Sequence record: PV419677.1 | Source: a phage | DNA length: 64,000 nt | Reading direction: 5' to 3' (one strand) | Part shown: positions 1,207 to 60,756 of the stretch, piece after piece | Position numbering within the stretch: position 1 is the first letter of the stretch | How the letters are laid out: every line of letters starts with the position of its first letter | Program-made: the position numbers and the translations under genes | Notes under the pieces: generated by a model | What the model was told of the DNA's origin: nothing | Seen by the model: only the letters and a program-made list of their open reading frames with translations | The model's database searches: none

Positions 1207-2527
1207 AATATGCGTCGTACCTCGCTCGTGTGATTCCAACATAAGCCAACTGGCTCGCTAATGAAGCTTCGGCCATATGGATGCATGGAGTATAGATGAA
1301 TGCTTTGTCCACTGAAACGCCTTGGGCCTTGTGGATTGTACTGACCGGAAGAGCACGGACTTTCAAGAAGGTCCTGCGCGCTTTCCAGAAGTCTTTCCAC
1401 TCTGGACGTTTACCAGCGGCTTTCATCTGTTTGTATGTGTCAGCAACTTTCGCCAGATATGCCTGGAATTTTGGTTGCTGGTCTTCTGGTAAAACTTTAA
1501 TGCGGTCAACCTGATATTCTTCATCTTCATCAATTGACTCAACTTCCAGGTCCCAGTAATTAATCACTAACTGGTGCGATTCGCCTTTACAACGGAGAAT
1601 GGTGGAAGTGTATTTGCAATCCTTGATGCGAACCAACTGACCATTATTAAAAATGGTTTCGCTGAATTTCTTACCTTCAAATTCCAGCTCTTTCATGTGC
1701 GGCTCTTGCATAACCAGGACTTCATACGGTAAAAATGCTTTATCCGTTTCATAGAGCTTGCGACGAATAATATTGTTCAGTTTTTCAACTGATTTATTCG
1801 TGTATGCATACATCCTGTTTTCCATCAACATATCAGCATCTTTTACAATACTGAAATAGTTTACCAGGAAATCCTTTAAAGCGGTTTGTGAGGTGAAACC
1901 TTGCACGCCATGACCTTCATACATACAGTCACGGAACCAGCCGCCATTGCGAATTTCTGTCGCCACTTCAATGATAGGAGCATTGCTTCGCATGACCTCA
2001 GTCAGATGAATCTGTTTGAACTTAGGATGCGTAAAGAACGGGCTTATCTTTTGCTGTGTGCTTCCCGGGTCAACTGGCTGCAGCTGGTGCATATCACCAA
2101 TTCCAAGAATAGTGCACCATTTAGGAACAGAGTTAAGAATAATCTTAAACAGAGACCCGTCATACATACTTGCTTCATCACAAACCAGAACATTGCATTT
2201 TGACATGTCAGGCATTTCGCGCTGTTCAAAAACGTTTTGGTCTTCATATGTCGTTGGGTTAATCTTCAAGATACTATGGATTGTATTCGCTGTTTGACCA
2301 GACAATTTAGATAAAACTTTTTTCGCCTGGTGAGTTGGTGCAGCAAGCACAATTCCCATAACTCCATTACGCACTAAGTGGTCAATGACAAATTTTGTCA
2401 GAGTGGTCTTACCTGTGCCAGCTGGACCATTCAGAGTGATACATTCCCCTGAACGTCGCTGAATAGCTTCAGTAATATAATCAAAAGCTTCTTTTTGTCC
2501 TGTGTTCAAGTCTTCAAATTTAATCAT
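1199..2527 (-). CDS. dda: Dda DNA helicase (SF1B)
   Basis: 442 aa; Walker A GPAGTGKTT, Walker B CDEASM; size and position as T4 Dda. Confidence 0.9.
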   Translation of the reverse strand: MIKFEDLNTGQKEAFDYITEAIQRRSGECITLNGPAGTGKTTLTKFVIDHLVRNGVMGIVLAAPTHQAKKVLSKLSGQTANTIHSILKINPTTYEDQNVFEQREMPDMSKCNVLVCDEASMYDGSLFKIILNSVPKWCTILGIGDMHQLQPVDPGSTQQKISPFFTHPKFKQIHLTEVMRSNAPIIEVATEIRNGGWFRDCMYEGHGVQGFTSQTALKDFLVNYFSIVKDADMLMENRMYAYTNKSVEKLNNIIRRKLYETDKAFLPYEVLVMQEPHMKELEFEGKKFSETIFNNGQLVRIKDCKYTSTILRCKGESHQLVINYWDLEVESIDEDEEYQVDRIKVLPEDQQPKFQAYLAKVADTYKQMKAAGKRPEWKDFWKARRTFLKVRALPVSTIHKAQGVSVDKAFIYTPCIHMAEASLASQLAYVGITRARYDAYYV

Positions 2528-2823
2528 GCCAATTTTACTCGCTTAACATATAAAGTATCTAAAATTAATTTCAATTCTCGTGCGTGTTCTTCAGTAGGAA
2601 AAACAGTTTTTGTTTCCCACTTATCAAACCACCATTTTCTAGGTGTGCATACTGTTTCAATACGTCCCATGCGTAAATAGCGCCTTGTAGTATATGAATA
2701 GTTGGCAAGTTCATATTCTGCGCCCACTTTTGTGGTGTATAAGGTAACCTTTCCATCATACTCCAATGGGTGTTCAAAACCATCTTTATCTTTGTGGACC
2801 AGCACATATGCGTAGTACATCAC
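2524..2823 (-). CDS. hypothetical protein
   Basis: 99 aa minus-strand ORF, stop/start overlap with dda. Confidence 0.5.
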   Translation of the reverse strand: MMYYAYVLVHKDKDGFEHPLEYDGKVTLYTTKVGAEYELANYSYTTRRYLRMGRIETVCTPRKWWFDKWETKTVFPTEEHARELKLILDTLYVKRVKLA

Positions 2824-2824
2824 A

Positions 2825-3571
2825 TTAACCTCTAATCAGTTTAAAAATTGACGCGTTCAAAGGCAGACCACGTTTCAGTTTTAATTTACCAATAAAACCA
2901 ATCTTCTCAAAACGCTCAAGACCTTGAATGATTTTATCATAGCAATCAAAAAGCGTTTCAGCATTAGTTAATTTCTTGGTAACTTTCCAGTCATTACCTT
3001 TGAGCAAGACGTTCAATTTAGTAAGCTCATGACCTTCCGCAATACGGGAACCATCAATGCGAGCCTTCAGAGCAACCATTTTTAATTGGTTTTCTTTGGA
3101 CTGCTCTGATTTACTCATTTGAGCATAATGCTTAACGCGATTCTCACGTTTGTGTTGGATGTTCTTGATATGGGTATATGACTTTTTAATCTGTTCCCAT
3201 TTCTCTGCAGACAGATTTAACTTTTCAATCTTCTTGACAGATGGACGAGCAATTTTTACAGCAACATCATCACGACGTTGTTTAAGCTCATCCAGGGACC
3301 AATCAGAACGCATAGTGTTGTATTTCTTTTTAACAGGAATAACATTACCTTTGATATAACCAATGTCATTGTTAAAACGCTCTAATGATAGCTTCTCACC
3401 TTCAATAGAGTTATTAAATGTTTCACCAGAATAAGCACAAACTTTTTGGTCAAGAATGTTAACCAGGTAATTGAAATCCAGGTTAAAGTCCTTGCCACGA
3501 CGTTTAGCAGAAGCTTGAGTGTGTTCCAGGCGACGTTTAACTTTCAGCGTTTTGGTTTTTGATAAAGTCAT
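2825..3571 (-). CDS. hypothetical early protein at the T4 srd position
   Basis: 248 aa basic protein between dda and modA; identity to Srd inferred from position and size only. Confidence 0.4.
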   Translation of the reverse strand: MTLSKTKTLKVKRRLEHTQASAKRRGKDFNLDFNYLVNILDQKVCAYSGETFNNSIEGEKLSLERFNNDIGYIKGNVIPVKKKYNTMRSDWSLDELKQRRDDVAVKIARPSVKKIEKLNLSAEKWEQIKKSYTHIKNIQHKRENRVKHYAQMSKSEQSKENQLKMVALKARIDGSRIAEGHELTKLNVLLKGNDWKVTKKLTNAETLFDCYDKIIQGLERFEKIGFIGKLKLKRGLPLNASIFKLIRG

Positions 3572-3611
3572 GATATTTTTCTCATCTTACGGACGATTTG
3601 GTAACTCAGTA

Positions 3612-3655
3612 TGGATTCATTATACACCATCCATTAGGTGTGTACACTACTTTTT
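3612..3655 (-). promoter_or_regulatory. T4-type early promoter upstream of the srd-position gene
   Basis: minus strand AAAAAGTAGTGTACA-N16-TATAAT then GAATCCATACTGAGTTACC leader. Confidence 0.55.
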
Positions 3656-3706
3656 CGCCTTTAACGCTTTTATTTTTACTGTGTATAATGGTTCTAAGGT
3701 CTTTGG

Positions 3707-4321
3707 TTAGTTCAAAACAGTCAAATGCCAAACAGTATACAGGTTATTCAATGGGTGTGTTTCAATCAAGTCTACGCGGAGCGTAGTCCCAGCGGGAAAC
3801 ATAAACTCATCTTCATCATTAACCAGGTGCAAGTTTGACTTCCTGGTTGCTTCTGGATATGCACCATTGAACTCTTCAGGAGGAGCACCACAAATCATTT
3901 TGAAGATTGCTTCCTGATAGTTATACGCATATGGTGCATTGTTTATGCAGAAAATATTCCTTGTTCCATAGAAACTGTATGATGCGAAATTTCTTGCAAC
4001 CTGCCAGTCCCTGGAAAAACTCATTACACGATTGAATTCAATTGTTGCCCCAACATATCTTAAATCTTCCAGGTATTCCATAGTTTTCTTTGATATACCA
4101 CGGAACAACGCCGCTGGCGGGGCAGTATTCAGATTGTTGCGGATAATCCTGGACAAGTCTTCTTGAATCAGGTCAGGTTTATTTTCCATACACTGCCAGA
4201 GTACTGATTGCTCATTATCTGTATAAAGAGCATCAATCTCCGCTTGACATTGGTTACGAAAAGACTCACTAGAAGCGGCGGTGTCAATAATTCCATTCAA
4301 AACGTCATCAGTGTATAGCAT
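3707..4321 (-). CDS. modA: ADP-ribosyltransferase, ModA-like
   Basis: R-S-E signature (LFRG, SFS, EDEFMFP); about 204 aa after trimming start to ATG at 4319-4321 with SD; position as T4 modA. Confidence 0.65.
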   Translation of the reverse strand: MLYTDDVLNGIIDTAASSESFRNQCQAEIDALYTDNEQSVLWQCMENKPDLIQEDLSRIIRNNLNTAPPAALFRGISKKTMEYLEDLRYVGATIEFNRVMSFSRDWQVARNFASYSFYGTRNIFCINNAPYAYNYQEAIFKMICGAPPEEFNGAYPEATRKSNLHLVNDEDEFMFPAGTTLRVDLIETHPLNNLYTVWHLTVLN

Positions 4322-4352
4322 TTTATTATCCTCATCAGTAGTTGATAGGAAC

Positions 4353-4385
4353 ATCTTAACGTGTCTTATTGTTCTTGTACACAGT
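4353..4385 (-). promoter_or_regulatory. early promoter-like element upstream of modA
   Basis: TGTACA -35, 17-nt spacer, weaker -10 TAAGAT, then conserved CTATCAACTACTGATGAGG leader. Confidence 0.35.
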
Positions 4386-4926
4386 CAAGAACATAATAAT
4401 CATCAATAAATCCAGCATCAACTACCACGAATTTCTGGTCAACTGGAACAAACCATTCAAGCTCGGAATCAATCATGTCCATGTATTCTTCACGCCTTAA
4501 TGTAGCTGCCCGGTCGGAACCAGAAGCTGTATTGAAGAATTCAAGTGGAACATCAAGTGCGATTTTGCGCATCGCATCATGGTAACAAAAAGCTTTGGTC
4601 TGATTCAATCTGACGATAGTCCTAGTCACATATTCCATTGCAGCAAAATCCCTGGCAATACCATAGTCTTCTGTAAAGGAGGTTATCCGTCCAAATTCAA
4701 AAGGTTGCATTGATTCTTTTGCTTCATCTAACAAATCAATCTCTTGCTGGGTTACTCCGCGCCACAAGACTGTATCGGGTATAGACAACCTTGACTTGAT
4801 GATTGAGTTGACATTTGAATGCAAGGTCTTATCAACCTTTGATGTGCGGCATTCAAATAATGAAGCTATCTCCATTTCACTAAATTTTAACTGGTTGGGT
4901 TCGGTATCAGATTTGATGATGTTCAT
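4366..4926 (-). CDS. modB: ADP-ribosyltransferase, ModB-like
   Basis: 186 aa, similar architecture to the adjacent ModA-like gene (LWRG, SFTEDYGIARDF, acidic C-terminal E-x-E region). Confidence 0.6.
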   Translation of the reverse strand: MNIIKSDTEPNQLKFSEMEIASLFECRTSKVDKTLHSNVNSIIKSRLSIPDTVLWRGVTQQEIDLLDEAKESMQPFEFGRITSFTEDYGIARDFAAMEYVTRTIVRLNQTKAFCYHDAMRKIALDVPLEFFNTASGSDRAATLRREEYMDMIDSELEWFVPVDQKFVVVDAGFIDDYYVLDCVQEQ

Positions 4927-53560: not shown

Positions 53561-54541
53561 TTATTTTTCGAAAGGACGAATTAAATGTTGGTTAGCCTTG
53601 AAACGTTTAACATAGTCTTCGTGACCCAGGGTGTTGTACATATTAACCACTTCCTGGTAATGTTCCCAGGCATACTCGCGGAACCATCCAGAAGTAATGG
53701 AGGTACAGACTTTTTCTAGTGCAATATGGAAGCTCACGGATGGAGAAATATTGAACTCATTAGGAACCTGCGAACGCTCCAGAGCAAGTACACATGCTTC
53801 TTCATAAACCCCAGCCAGTTTAATAATCTCAGGGAGTGCTTCAAATTTTTCACGCGAGGTCATAACTTCTGAATTATCCTTCATATAGAACTTATATGCA
53901 GGCTTATCAGCAAGCGCCACGGCCTCGTGGATGGAGTCATGGTCAAGGGTATAGATTGTATCATTAAAGAAAGCTTTCTTATCCACGTCTAGTTTAGGGT
54001 GGCTATATGACAATGTTTCTGCCTGGCGCTGCAGCATGATTTTATGCAGTTCGTCATTAAGAACAACCCCCTTATTGCGAAGGTAATTAATATGACTCAT
54101 GGTCTTCAGGAAGAATGGATTGTTCTTCAGGTAACGATGAGACAATTTAATTGCCAGACAAATATCAGGAGTCGCCCAATAGAAACCAGATAGACGGTCT
54201 TTCTGAATATTTGCCTTCGCATATTTGAGTAAACGATAACTGGAGGTAAAATCTTCCTCTTGTAGCTCATCAGTCAGCTCACGAACACTTGTCAATGCGC
54301 GGACGATGTACGCTTCAAAATAGGTTTCTTTACCATTGTGCATACATTTAAAAGCTTGAACATCTGGGTTATCCACATGCACATGTTGTCCCATCATCTG
54401 GGTTTTAAAGCTATTCCAGGAGCCCTGGTCAGCGATAAAGTCCCAATCAGAGTTTTCAATTTTCTGACTTTCAATCAGACCAGCGTTATGTAATGCACGA
54501 GAACCAATAACTAACATCATAATATTTTCCTCAAATAACAC
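53561..54541 (-). CDS. hypothetical protein
   Basis: 326 aa ORF. Confidence 0.5.
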   Translation of the reverse strand: MLFEENIMMLVIGSRALHNAGLIESQKIENSDWDFIADQGSWNSFKTQMMGQHVHVDNPDVQAFKCMHNGKETYFEAYIVRALTSVRELTDELQEEDFTSSYRLLKYAKANIQKDRLSGFYWATPDICLAIKLSHRYLKNNPFFLKTMSHINYLRNKGVVLNDELHKIMLQRQAETLSYSHPKLDVDKKAFFNDTIYTLDHDSIHEAVALADKPAYKFYMKDNSEVMTSREKFEALPEIIKLAGVYEEACVLALERSQVPNEFNISPSVSFHIALEKVCTSITSGWFREYAWEHYQEVVNMYNTLGHEDYVKRFKANQHLIRPFEK

Positions 54542-54772
54542 TTAAATTTCAGCAGCAGAGATATTAGATTCATCTATCATCTCAGAGGCGGACCCCTTAA
54601 CGATAGGAACCAATTTGCCATAGAGGTCTTCATTGTAAGGGTCGTTGATACAGTGTGCATCTTCAAAACAAACACCGTAATCAGACTTCTTATAAACGAG
54701 ACCGTAAATCTTTGTAAACTTAGCACGACTAATTTTTACAGGCTCATCAGTCATTGGGGCGTAATACCACAT
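54542..54772 (-). CDS. hypothetical protein
   Basis: 76 aa ORF. Confidence 0.4.
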   Translation of the reverse strand: MWYYAPMTDEPVKISRAKFTKIYGLVYKKSDYGVCFEDAHCINDPYNEDLYGKLVPIVKGSASEMIDESNISAAEI

Positions 54773-54875: not shown

Positions 54876-55103
54876 TTATTTTCCCAACGAAATACGAGTA
54901 GGTTTTTTGCCAAAATATTCTTCATAAGAACCATCTAAACGACCTGCTTTAGACCGACAATATGAATCATACTTTTTATAATAGGTCAACTCGGTATTAT
55001 AACGTGGGTGTCTATCAGCCATAATAATACTTAACGGCCAACCTTTGGCATAATCGCGAAGACCATTTATTTTACGAATGTATCTTTTCTTTAATTTTAG
55101 CAT
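54876..55103 (-). CDS. hypothetical basic protein
   Basis: 75 aa ORF. Confidence 0.4.
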   Translation of the reverse strand: MLKLKKRYIRKINGLRDYAKGWPLSIIMADRHPRYNTELTYYKKYDSYCRSKAGRLDGSYEEYFGKKPTRISLGK

Positions 55104-55321
55104 GAGCTCGGGTACCAGATTTTACCATCGGAGCGAGCAACGAAGGTACGACCAGCTTCTTCACCATAACAAGAGCTATTCAGCCAATCTTCAAGACGAA
55201 CTTCACCGTCGTAATCATCTAGCTCAACACCAAAATCTTGAGCGTTAGCCATATCTTTTACTTTCTTATACAGCGCAGCCAGTTCAAGAGCTGCTTTTTC
55301 CAATTCATTAATATTAGACAT
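55097..55321 (-). CDS. W-x-SS-C C-terminal family member 1
   Basis: 74 aa; ends KIWYPSSC; internal WLNSSCYGEE. Confidence 0.5.
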   Translation of the reverse strand: MSNINELEKAALELAALYKKVKDMANAQDFGVELDDYDGEVRLEDWLNSSCYGEEAGRTFVARSDGKIWYPSSC

Positions 55322-55330
55322 TTTTATTCC

Positions 55331-55561
55331 TTAGCAAGACATAGAGGAGTTAAACCAGAAACCCTGGCCATCATTGATGCCATAATCACTGCGAATCCAG
55401 TCATATTCTTCATATTCTTCGCTAGAAGCCGGAATATAACGTTGGAAACGGTCTGCGGCGTGTAAATTAAAAATTTCACCGGTTTTATCGGCTAACTGCT
55501 CACCTTCACAGATTAGTGCACGGATTTGGTCTTCAATTTCTTTAACAGTTTTAGTAGTCAT
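55331..55561 (-). CDS. W-x-SS-x-C C-terminal family member 2
   Basis: 76 aa; ends FWFNSSMSC. Confidence 0.5.
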   Translation of the reverse strand: MTTKTVKEIEDQIRALICEGEQLADKTGEIFNLHAADRFQRYIPASSEEYEEYDWIRSDYGINDGQGFWFNSSMSC

Positions 55562-55570
55562 TTTATAACC

Positions 55571-55783
55571 TTAGCATTCATAAGAGGAGGACACCCAAGA
55601 GGTACCGCTAATAGTAATACAACCATTATAAAGCGTAATATGTTGTTCCAGATTACGCTGACCGTCAATATAGATATCAGCTTCTTCGCGTTCTTCTTTG
55701 CAAATCTGGATAACGTTTTCAATAGCTGCCGCGGCAGTACGGATTGCACAATCTAATTCACGAGACATATAATTCCTTAACAT
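55571..55783 (-). CDS. WVSSS-x-EC C-terminal family member 3
   Basis: 70 aa; ends SWVSSSYEC. Confidence 0.5.
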   Translation of the reverse strand: MLRNYMSRELDCAIRTAAAAIENVIQICKEEREEADIYIDGQRNLEQHITLYNGCITISGTSWVSSSYEC

Positions 55784-56058
55784 TCAGAAGAGGAGGACAC
55801 CCAACCGCCATTTTCTAGGTCGGTTGTGTAGTCATGAGTATTAACAATAGCCCATTCAGGATGACCATCTTCTTCCCAATGAGCAAGGTCAGCTTTCAAG
55901 GCGCCAGGAGAATAATAGTCACCGCCCATACCGCGAGCAGGGTATATATTAAAATGAGTCTCATATTTGTCTGCAATTTCCTCAGCACGGCGAATGGCTT
56001 CATGGATTTCTTTTACTGCGGCCAGAAGCTCTGGTTGGTTATGGTTATCATTCATCAT
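55777..56058 (-). CDS. WVSSS-x-EC C-terminal family member 4
   Basis: start trimmed to ATG 56056-56058 (GAGG SD), 1 nt after upstream stop; ends GGWVSSSSEC. Confidence 0.5.
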   Translation of the reverse strand: MMNDNHNQPELLAAVKEIHEAIRRAEEIADKYETHFNIYPARGMGGDYYSPGALKADLAHWEEDGHPEWAIVNTHDYTTDLENGGWVSSSSEC

Positions 56059-56059
56059 A

Positions 56060-56350
56060 TTAGCACACCTCAGAAGAGGAAACCCATGCACCAACAGTAA
56101 CAACACCGTTTTCAACTCGCCCGCCGTTGTTTTCAATATGGTGAGCAAACCATTCAGAACATTCATAACCAACTGGATGATATGTACGGCCGGTGCCATA
56201 ATCGCCAGTGCTGAATTCAATACCGTACTTGTCGGCAATTTCTTCACATTTGGATTCGATGGTGTCTACTTTACTCAACAGGTCATAGATGGCTTTTTCT
56301 GCAGATTTCTCGTCGGTGTATCCAGGGATTTCAATTTCAATTTTATTCAT
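56060..56350 (-). CDS. WVSSS-x-EC C-terminal family member 5
   Basis: 96 aa; ends GAWVSSSEVC. Confidence 0.5.
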   Translation of the reverse strand: MNKIEIEIPGYTDEKSAEKAIYDLLSKVDTIESKCEEIADKYGIEFSTGDYGTGRTYHPVGYECSEWFAHHIENNGGRVENGVVTVGAWVSSSEVC

Positions 56351-56700
56351 GATTTACATTCCTTAATAAAGGTTTCAAGGTCATTACGTTTTGTTTTGTC
56401 TAGGAACTTATTATACTCAGCCATTGCCAAAGCGTATCTCTTCCGGCTAGGAGCATTCACGGCGTTTGTATGACAGATATCATACACAACAGGGATAAAA
56501 TAAGCCACAACAGCCGGAGCGATTATCATAAAGAACCCCATCTCAATAGGCATGACTCCCTCGATTGCAGCCATAACCGTGGTCATTACCAGACCAACCA
56601 AACCACCGAGCATGGCGGTGACAATTCCCAATAATAAATTGCCGCCAATATCATATTCAGCCAATTGATAAACATGTGATGCAAGACTAGGCCGTTCCAT
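56347..56700 (-). CDS. membrane protein with C-terminal FIKECKS motif
   Basis: start trimmed to ATG 56698-56700 with AAGGAGG SD; two TM helices. Confidence 0.45.
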   Translation of the reverse strand: MERPSLASHVYQLAEYDIGGNLLLGIVTAMLGGLVGLVMTTVMAAIEGVMPIEMGFFMIIAPAVVAYFIPVVYDICHTNAVNAPSRKRYALAMAEYNKFLDKTKRNDLETFIKECKS

Positions 56701-57046
56701 TACGAACCTCCTTAATAAATTCTTCGGCACATTTAATTTTGTGCTCTTCTTGTAGGGAAACACATTTTTGTTCCCACTCTTTAACTCGCCCACGATATCC
56801 TTTATTCATATGATTTTGATGCCACGCATTTATCAATATCATACTCAGGACCGTAATAAAAGGAGCTGCGATTATTAGCGCCCAGGCAACTCCAACACTA
56901 ATGATATCCATATCCCCACAAAGCACCATCATTATAACCCCAACGATGCACATGGACAAAGCTCCAAATGGAGGCATAAGGTCTTTATCAATCTTGTCTG
57001 CGTATACAAATTTTTCTGGTTTACTTGGCAGATATAACGTTCGCAT
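56687..57046 (-). CDS. membrane protein with C-terminal EEFIKEV motif
   Basis: start trimmed to ATG 57044-57046 with AAGGGG SD; two TM helices. Confidence 0.45.
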   Translation of the reverse strand: MRTLYLPSKPEKFVYADKIDKDLMPPFGALSMCIVGVIMMVLCGDMDIISVGVAWALIIAAPFITVLSMILINAWHQNHMNKGYRGRVKEWEQKCVSLQEEHKIKCAEEFIKEVRNGTA

Positions 57047-57593
57047 TTTGAACCCCTTTAGCATATTCACGACATTCAGCAATAAAACGATTAAGCTTAC
57101 GTTTCCGTTTACGACTCTCTAATGTATACTCAGCCGCCAAATCAAGAAGCTCATCTTTATCATAATTTTTAATATCAGTATAAGCTGGGCGGCGGTCAAC
57201 CATTCCAAATACATCGCCATTCTCTAGCGCCACATAACATACTAAATGGTAATCATCATCGGCCACATTAAGAAGTACGCAATCGTTGCTCTCGTTTAAA
57301 GCATACACTGAATAACGTAGTCCAGCGAATTCTGCTTGTTGGATACTCAGATTTACATCAATAATTTCCAAGGCATCTGCAAAAGAAAGGTCTTCAGCTA
57401 AAGCAAAAATAAAAGGCAATTTTGTAGTATCGCCGCGGCTAGTTGTTCTTCTTAAGAAATCATTGGAATAACCCAGGTCACCACGGATTCTATAAAGAAC
57501 TGTGTTAGTTTCAGTGGCAAGACCGCTCCCACCAAACCAATCTACATTTGATATAAGGTCAGTATATAAGCTCATAATATTCTCCTCTCCCAA
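57021..57593 (-). CDS. hypothetical protein with C-terminal RFIAECREY motif
   Basis: 190 aa ORF. Confidence 0.45.
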   Translation of the reverse strand: MGEENIMSLYTDLISNVDWFGGSGLATETNTVLYRIRGDLGYSNDFLRRTTSRGDTTKLPFIFALAEDLSFADALEIIDVNLSIQQAEFAGLRYSVYALNESNDCVLLNVADDDYHLVCYVALENGDVFGMVDRRPAYTDIKNYDKDELLDLAAEYTLESRKRKRKLNRFIAECREYAKGVQNANVISAK

Positions 57594-60360: not shown

Positions 60361-60599
60361 TGCTCGGCTTACGGCAAAGATATTCCCTCGAATCGATAAT
60401 TCTGTGCGCCGTTTCAGCTGTGATATAAGGGGACATCAACAAATCGTAAAGATTTATTAATGCCAGTCCTTAAACAGGGAACTTCAGTCCGACGACTTAC
60501 CGGTAGCGACCCGGTTTCTTGTTTGTTGCGCCGGTGAATGCTGATAATCAGTCTTCATACGACGGCTTGACTATATAATAGTCTTCATTTGGTATCCCG

Positions 60600-60674
60600 C
60601 CCTGGGATCGAACCAGGACCGCAAACTTAGAAGGATCGTATGCTATCCATTACACCAGCGGGACATAGTTGGTG
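60600..60674 (-). tRNA. tRNA-Arg (anticodon UCU)
   Basis: hand-folded cloverleaf: acceptor GTCCCGC/GCGGGAT, anticodon loop CTTCTAA, T-loop TTCGATC, encoded CCA. Confidence 0.75.
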
Positions 60675-60679
60675 ACCCA

Positions 60680-60756
60680 GACCAGATTTGAACTGGTAAC
60701 CTTTCCCTTATGAGGGGACTGCTGCTAACCATTGAGCTACAGGGCCTTAATTCTAT
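60680..60756 (-). tRNA. tRNA with anticodon CAU (Ile2 or Met type)
   Basis: hand-folded: acceptor GGCCCTG/CTGGGTC, anticodon loop CTCATAA, T-arm ACCAG-TTCAAAT-CTGGT, encoded CCA. Confidence 0.65.

Follow-up and report, generated by a model that had tools for sequence, protein, structure and literature searches.

The five consecutive open reading frames (ORFs) considered here, p1 to p5, fill positions 55,097 to 56,350 of the window, by which we mean the whole 64,000-nucleotide stretch of the phage sequence record PV419677.1 that was analyzed. The window comes from a T4-like phage and all genes in the region of the array are on the minus strand. An earlier note, made from the sequence alone, had described the five ORFs as a tandem array of small paralogs that end in a conserved motif and belong to a family it did not recognize. 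This description holds: p1 to p5 are paralogous members of a family of small acidic alpha/beta proteins that is restricted to phages, and they share the C-terminal motif W-x-SSS-x-x-C. About 0.55 kb downstream of the array, outside the region that the earlier note had covered, is a gene for a predicted nucleotidyltransferase (NTase) with the domains DUF7277 and DUF7275, and we consider it probable that the small-protein family and this NTase form one functional module.

The size range that had been given for the five proteins, 70–96 aa, is correct at its upper end, but p3 has only 65 aa from the start that we chose based on an AAGGA site 5 nt upstream and the annotation of SP18; the upstream ATG at 55783, if used, would give 70 aa. 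All five paralogs are acidic, with isoelectric points of 4.3–4.6. Their dN/dS values against the SP18 orthologs (0.10–0.29) are those of purifying selection and, together with matches to PHROGs with E values from 4e-10 to 3e-36, lead us to regard p1–p5 as genuine coding genes. Two longer ORFs in the ORF list were dismissed as artifacts of the listing: one of 156 aa (55777–56247, minus strand, GTG start), which is p2 read through from a GTG inside p1, and one of 168 aa (55967–56473, plus strand), which overlaps p1 and p2.

Searches of the five paralogs against Pfam, NCBIfam, PADLOC, and PDB sequences returned nothing significant, and the only matches were to two PHROGs of unknown function, phrog_899 for p1, p2, p4, and p5 (E values of 4e-10 to 2e-21) and phrog_4882 for p3. 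PHROGs thereby divides the family into two, and its records contain neither the common tail, nor the shared architecture, nor the linkage to the NTase. A family hidden Markov model (HMM) built here recovered all five paralogs, although p5 only weakly (E=0.01); an orthologous p5 subtype is conserved elsewhere. A single-sequence word-index search retrieved close orthologs only. When 1.8 billion representative proteins were searched with a profile built from the five paralogs, we obtained approximately 39 true relatives of 72–115 aa, all of which have the same helix, a YGMGGTYYP motif, and an end of the form G.W.SSS..C; two further matches (P0009 and P0025), both long repeat proteins, were set aside as spurious. 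The bodies of the paralogs had been described as divergent. They have indeed diverged, but most members share an N-terminal amphipathic helix that ends in EAExIADxxGxxF and an (A/D)YGMGGTYYP hairpin, which are followed by an acidic variable linker and the G-x-W-x-S-S-S-x-x-C end.

The tail was assessed in 149 non-identical members from more than 100 loci, 147 of which had enough flanking sequence for the gene end to be read and 122 of which had the W-6-C spacing. Within the latter set the Trp, the Ser at position -5, and the Cys at position -1 are invariant (122/122 each) and the Ser at -4 is nearly so (116/122), and in 145 of the 147 readable members no residue follows the Cys. Such conservation of the motif goes far beyond what chance would produce. 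The pattern W-x-[SAP]-S-S-x-x-C with a last-residue Cys fits p1–p4. The tail of p5 is shortened (W-Y-P-S-S-C) and p5 has an additional, internal copy of the motif. Serine in the tail is encoded by TCT, TCC, TCA, and TCG as well as by AGC and AGT, the Val at -7 by all four of its codons, and the Cys by both TGC and TGT. As TCN and AGY codons both occur at the serines, selection acts on the tail as protein.

These codons bear on an explanation that the earlier note itself had raised, in which the motif would be a by-product of a conserved DNA element at the gene junctions (a ribosome-binding site, terminator, or recombination repeat) and would have no meaning at the protein level. There is a DNA component at the junctions: p2 and p3 have a 27-nt stretch in common with two mismatches, all junctions have the form TG[CT]-TAA-GG, and a natural deletion in phage vB_EcoM_RZ, described below, breaks exactly there. 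The repeat is less general than had been reported, however, as only the p2 and p3 ends carry it (within three mismatches), the other ends are 63–70% similar, and the p5 end does not belong to the repeat family at all. A Shine-Dalgarno GAGG said to be embedded in the repeat was read on the wrong strand, the mRNA there having CCUCC. The true ribosome-binding sites of p3, p4, and p5 are TAAGGA or TAAGGT sequences that straddle the preceding stop codon, and p2 alone is served by a GAGGTG, formed within Glu-Val codons of p1. In addition to the free use of synonymous codons at the Ser, Val, and Cys positions and the low dN/dS values, the motif is kept in homologs from unrelated phages that have no DNA similarity, different downstream sequence, and TGA and TAG stops as well. 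The codon evidence refutes the DNA-element explanation, to which we assign next to no credence.

A monomer model of p2, produced with AlphaFold2 from a 44-sequence alignment, is confident, with a predicted local distance difference test score (pLDDT) of 90.2 and a predicted template modeling score (pTM) of 0.78. It has a long helix (residues 9–32), a beta-hairpin (35–38 and 46–49) with the GMGG loop, a subtype-specific helical insert, and a third strand (84–87) in which the invariant Trp is situated. The final three residues are modeled with low confidence and are probably flexible. No significant structural similarity was found between the small protein and the Phd/YefM antitoxin fold. We also considered whether the small proteins might be precursors similar to those of ribosomally synthesized and post-translationally modified peptides (RiPPs), from which a modified C-terminal core would be released as a small bioactive peptide, as they are small, have a conserved Ser/Cys-rich C-terminus, and are encoded next to an enzyme gene. 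The body, however, is predicted to be compact and confidently folded (pLDDT 90) with conserved motifs of its own, the tail holds only about three variable positions, and a Pfam scan of the neighboring genes found no YcaO, radical-SAM, lanthipeptide, protease, or exporter genes. Based on the compact fold and the absence of RiPP enzyme domains among the neighbors, we rejected this very improbable reading.

The p5-type members have a double motif, in which W-x-[NS]-S-[SD]-C directly precedes YGE..G..F and is then repeated at the C-terminus (Table 1). This arrangement is kept in very distant phages, with the p5 subtype conserved in Klebsiella-type, Phapecoctavirus-type, and Pseudomonas phage loci, and suggests that the YG..G loop and the tail motif are linked in space or in function. 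All of the p1–p5 subtypes are recognizable in Escherichia phage loci and in those same three groups of loci, which amounts to at least five ancient subtypes. We also observed a variant of about 140 aa in which an internal W-E-[AS]-S-G-[GS]-C is followed by about 15 residues and the end ...GWN[VI], so that its Cys is not C-terminal.

On the contigs of the distant homologs, a DUF7277+DUF7275 protein of about 310 aa came after the small genes each time. Linkage of the two families was then examined from both sides. A family-anchored search with a degenerate DNA pattern for YGMGGTYY yielded 24 IMG/VR loci, including jumbo-phage contigs of 355–389 kb and contigs of 26–60 kb, and in these one to five tandem members are followed by DUF7275 on the same strand wherever the flank suffices, except in one locus (L022), where an insertion moves DUF7275 1.6 kb away (visible on the same contig in L078). 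The NTase-anchored set comprised 80 IMG/VR loci anchored on DUF7275 homologs of 39–97% identity. Family members are present upstream and on the same strand in 70 of these by HMM and in four more by inspection (L059, L079, L098, and L099, whose members have divergent tails), that is, in at least 74/80, whereas elsewhere in each locus there is at most one family-HMM match. As a control, ten other neighbors of the array in the window were found to recur in just 4–31 of the same 80 loci, so the linkage between array and NTase is not background synteny. The NTase gene often follows the last family gene at a distance of -12 to +60 nt, which suggests that the two are co-translated. A genome collection of 185,579 species, with one genome each, contained only five DUF7275 loci, all on contigs of metagenome-assembled genomes (MAGs), and all five have family members directly upstream; bacterial genomes are essentially without the module. 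The loci with no family member upstream were L085 (4962–5930), L054, L081, L082, and L104. In L085 the NTase ORF is split by a frameshift, and in L054 apparent short non-coding or tRNA-like stretches are situated upstream in place of family members.

These counts also bear on the possibility that the small proteins serve anti-defense or host takeover independently, such as sponges for small molecules or mimics of nucleic acids would, and that they adjoin the NTase gene only because both lie in a shared island of early accessory genes. The proteins are small, acidic, and encoded in an early region, and this hyperplastic region is absent from the syntenic site in T4. In addition, the array of phage ukendt contains a vs.4/Acb2-like gene, and the glycine-rich YGMGG loop could form a ligand pocket with the Ser-rich tail. 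On the other hand, the adjacency survives across phage families in which the other neighbors have all been replaced (at least 74/80 loci versus 4–31/80 for the controls), and the genes keep a fixed orientation and order and frequently adjoin one another. We therefore regard this explanation as doubtful.

The partner enzyme has more than 2,000 homologs, none of them informatively named, and no paper on either family was found in the searchable literature using DUF, PHROG, and Pfam identifiers and phage MenT-like enzymes as search terms. In an alignment of 38 enzyme sequences the residues D25-x-D27, K125, and D193/D195 are invariant, as are G6-S7, E69, H128-R129, H174, H194, H198, E240-E241, C243, E248-R249, and the KVCTSITSGWFRE block. 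The AlphaFold2 monomer model of the enzyme (pLDDT 91.9, pTM 0.85) predicts an NTase fold of the MenT/AbiEii/ANT class to which a conserved helical domain has been added, whereas searches at the sequence level gave no match to the families of this class. Two positions ahead of the first catalytic Asp, the window enzyme has N23, and the alignment is variable there; based on the T-x-D-x-D spacing, we take this position to correspond to the phosphoacceptor of MenT enzymes (T39 in MenT1).

Of the known systems, the phage module most resembles the NTase pairs of the MenAT/AbiE type. According to published work, MenT toxins extend tRNA acceptor ends. The 68-aa MenA1, whose gene lies upstream, neutralizes MenT1 (PMC10435456). 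MenA antitoxins cause an active-site Ser/Thr of MenT to become phosphorylated, auto-phosphorylation of MenT1 is triggered by the N-terminal helix of MenA1, and a Ser/Thr located beside the bound nucleotide can be phosphorylated by MenT active sites (PMC11375011). The likeness consists of the invariant DxD, Lys, and Asp of the phage enzyme, which are putative catalytic residues, the gene for a small, probably cognate partner directly upstream in the same operon, and the prominent N-terminal helix which is predicted for the phage small protein and recalls that of MenA1. There are also clear differences. The phage enzyme matches neither DUF1814/AbiEii nor any PADLOC model in sequence and carries an additional conserved helical domain in which His and Cys residues are invariant; the module resides in lytic phage genomes and, apart from the five MAG contigs among 185,579 species genomes, not in bacteria, as a bacterial toxin–antitoxin system would; and as many as five paralogous partners occur, each with the invariant W-x-SSS-x-x-C tail, which is not known from any MenA or AbiEi. 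The restriction to phages, the paralog arrays, and the invariant Cys-terminal tail are features that none of the MenAT/AbiE-type systems is known to show.

Our preferred interpretation, to which we assign, in the full mechanistic form given in this paragraph, a probability of roughly 45%, is that the small proteins act with the downstream NTase and that their shared tail is a recognition handle, each small protein being either a MenA-like regulator or pseudo-substrate of the enzyme or an acceptor for it. The invariant Trp-x-Ser-Ser-Ser-x-x-Cys-COOH tail would be the common handle by which one enzyme could recognize one to five diverged partners, and a recognition element of this kind is our proposed explanation for why the W...SS...C-COOH end is unchanging on bodies that have diverged. 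The Trp would anchor the last beta-strand of the small protein, and the Ser-Ser and the free C-terminal Cys would reach into the NTase active site. There the small protein, as regulator or pseudo-substrate, would obstruct the cavity in which MenT toxins bind the tRNA 3' end, or a tail serine would accept a phosphate or nucleotide, or both. The existence of the family, the conservation of its tail at the amino-acid level, and a near-obligatory, oriented gene linkage to an enzyme with a predicted MenT-like fold are shown; we infer the physical contact between small protein and NTase, the role of the tail, and the substrate of the enzyme. Gene order, size, acidity, and the MenT precedent favor the version with a regulator or pseudo-substrate, and the acidity of the paralogs fits the electropositive cavity described for MenT1. 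The chemistry of the invariant residues and the fact that several paralogs accompany one enzyme favor the version with a covalent acceptor.

Several points weigh against this interpretation, beginning with the lack of sequence matches to DUF1814/AbiEii and PADLOC models mentioned above. About 5 of 85 NTase loci have no family member at all though the NTase looks intact, so the NTase can persist alone, and in Stenotrophomonas, Streptomyces, and Gordonia phages, which have distant DUF7275 proteins, the small genes upstream are devoid of the motif. Synteny in phage accessory regions can reflect shared regulation and not a shared pathway. One to five deeply conserved paralog subtypes per enzyme would be unusual for an antitoxin and suggest a separate role for each paralog. 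Lastly, the known protein nucleotidylyltransferases with a pol-beta fold (GlnE, GlnD, MNT, and DrrA) modify tyrosine, not serine.

In the HEPN-MNT (type VII) toxin–antitoxin systems, the NTase AMPylates its partner, which is the covalent acceptor. These systems resemble the phage module in that an NTase of the pol-beta superfamily is paired with a small partner, and they provide a precedent for the small proteins being substrates of the enzyme. A HEPN identity for the small proteins was rejected, since a Pfam scan of the paralogs gave no HEPN match and the Rx4-6H motif is not conserved in the family alignment. The candidate acceptors here are also Ser or Cys rather than Tyr, and the phage enzyme is a 319-aa protein with a second domain and not a minimal NTase.

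The substrate idea can be taken further, in that the NTase might covalently modify the common tail of a set of effectors, by nucleotidylylation or phosphorylation of the Ser-Ser or through chemistry at the terminal Cys, and thereby switch the effectors on or off. The tail would then be the site of modification and not an inhibitor. The residues that are invariant across the family are nucleophiles (Ser, Ser, and Cys) on a probably flexible end, the tail is conserved on diverged bodies, and one enzyme would serve several paralogs. The ability of MenT-fold active sites to transfer phosphate to Ser/Thr (PMC11375011) is consistent with such a reaction, and an acceptor in trans is conceivable as the phosphoacceptor position is not conserved in the phage enzyme (N23). 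Against this, no known enzyme of the MenT/AbiEii/ANT class modifies another protein, and the mapping of N23 to MenT1 T39 rests on sequence spacing and not on superposition. On balance we consider covalent switching of this kind somewhat unlikely. We regard as unlikely, too, its more specific form, a phage-specific tail-modification system in which a MenT-fold NTase would nucleotidylylate or phosphorylate in trans the Ser-Ser or C-terminal Cys of up to five effector paralogs. If tail modification were true, the enzyme would be the first of the MenT/AbiEii class to act on a protein tail rather than a tRNA 3' end, and hundreds of T4-like, rV5-like, and jumbo phages would have in it a master switch for their host-takeover or anti-defense effectors.

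Several hundred sequenced phages carry the module, among them many T4-like, Phapecoctavirus, and jumbo phages that are therapeutic candidates, and all of its components are annotated as hypothetical. Enzymes of the MenT/AbiEii class are known as effectors of abortive infection and as bacterial toxins that extend tRNA 3' ends and thereby stop translation. A branch of this fold that is confined to phages and accompanied by small acidic proteins with an invariant tail points to one of three things: viral control of an NTase (for host shut-off or, near phage tRNA genes, for repair of tRNA ends), a counter-measure to host NTase toxins, or a new chemistry of protein tails. A function for the module would cover two large domain families (DUF7275 and DUF7277) and two PHROGs.

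The records in which these genes were found number 398 for p1 and 732 phage records for the enzyme, and there were 175 IMG/VR stretches. Outside the Straboviridae, the module is present in Phapecoctavirus ukendt, in Otagovirus UNO-G1W1, and on the jumbo-phage contigs of 355–389 kb. Phage ukendt has three family members with the vs.4/Acb2-like gene inserted among them, which by guilt-by-association is a weak hint that the array lies in an anti-defense island.

The gene ends have the junction TG[CT]-TAA-GG in common. In phage vB_EcoM_RZ (L002 4490–4580, compared with 55290–55620 of the window) exactly p4 has been deleted, and the breakpoint falls within the 8-nt TGC-TAA-GG junction, indicating loss of the unit by recombination between gene ends. 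Because the breakpoint is in a shared gene junction, the array behaves as a set of cassettes. The order of the subtypes also differs between genera, being p1-p2-p3-p4-p5 in the window versus p1-p2-p5-p4-p3 in Klebsiella-type loci. T4 has its own polymorphic small accessory proteins, the internal proteins IPI, IPII, and IPIII, which have diverged bodies, a common capsid-targeting sequence, and cassette-shuffled genes. The array resembles them in its combination of diverged bodies with one short terminal signal and in the cassette-like deletion of p4. Unlike that of the internal proteins, however, the signal of the array proteins is C-terminal and not N-terminal, they have no L-x-E site for the prohead protease, and they are linked to an NTase and not to head assembly.

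Table 1. Genes of the array and its surroundings in the window, and family features at other loci (positions with an L number are those of the respective locus).
Feature	Position	Strand	Description	Matches and values
p1	56060-56350	minus	96 aa; ends AWVSSSEVC; GDYG.G.TYHP subtype	phrog_899 E=2e-21; family HMM E=2e-24; dN/dS 0.10
p2	55777-56058	minus	93 aa; MMNDN...GWVSSSSEC; canonical ARGMGGDYYSPG subtype	phrog_899 E=1e-19; dN/dS 0.29
p3	55571-55768	minus	65 aa from MSRELD; ends SWVSSSYEC	phrog_4882 E=3e-36; family HMM E=5e-5
p4	55331-55561	minus	76 aa; ends FWFNSSMSC; EEYIP subtype	phrog_899 E=6e-15; family HMM E=1e-19
p5	55097-55321	minus	74 aa; double-motif subtype: internal DWLNSSC, then YGEEAGRTF, end IWYPSSC	phrog_899 E=4e-10
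Partner NTase gene, DUF7277+DUF7275	53561-54520	minus	319 aa from MMLVIGS	Pfam E=9e-76 and 3e-27
Two small intervening genes, array to NTase	54542-54772; 54876-55103	minus	76 aa; 75 aa	phrog_3723, phrog_7065
Two overlapping small predicted membrane proteins	56347-57082	minus	directly upstream of p1; e.3/e.4-like in relatives	phrog_2330, phrog_2604
Stretch with a vs.4/Acb2-like gene (anti-CBASS sponge family)	L114 (Escherichia phage ukendt, MN850565) 2429-4445		amid array, just upstream of NTase	
p5-type double-motif member	L006 5770-5991			
p5-type double-motif member	L012 6570-6833			
p5-type double-motif member	L059 4700-4954			
p5-type double-motif member	L099 4357-4677			
Variant of about 140 aa	L113 (Pseudomonas phage UNO-G1W1) 2748-3173			
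Variant of about 140 aa	L016 647-1066			
Variant of about 140 aa	L032 3386-3934			

A 2-kb region containing the array is 100% identical to Shigella phage fPSFA and 86–94% identical to phages of the JS98/SP18/TH55 type (Gaprivervirus/Dhakavirus, Straboviridae). In annotated relatives it sits between e.2 and e.3/e.4, and each gene there is labeled as hypothetical; in T4, e.2 adjoins e.3 and the whole block is missing at that position. The two small genes between the array and the NTase gene are lineage-specific inserts outside the conserved module, with phrog_3723 and phrog_7065 present in only 12/80 and 6/80 NTase-anchored loci, respectively. The two predicted membrane-protein genes on the other side of the array, the first of which overlaps the start of p1 with its stop, are likewise outside the conserved module, based on the presence of phrog_2330 and phrog_2604 in only 9/80 and 4/80 of these loci.

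Genes for tRNA-Arg(TCT) and tRNA-Met(CAT) are located about 4.3 kb upstream of the array (60590–60746, minus strand). Similarly, the distant DUF7275 gene of Gordonia phage Abscondus is about 1.3 kb from a tRNA cluster, and that of Streptomyces phage Blueeyedbeauty is near an RNA ligase gene. This proximity to tRNA and RNA ligase genes hints at a possible tRNA-related activity of the enzyme.

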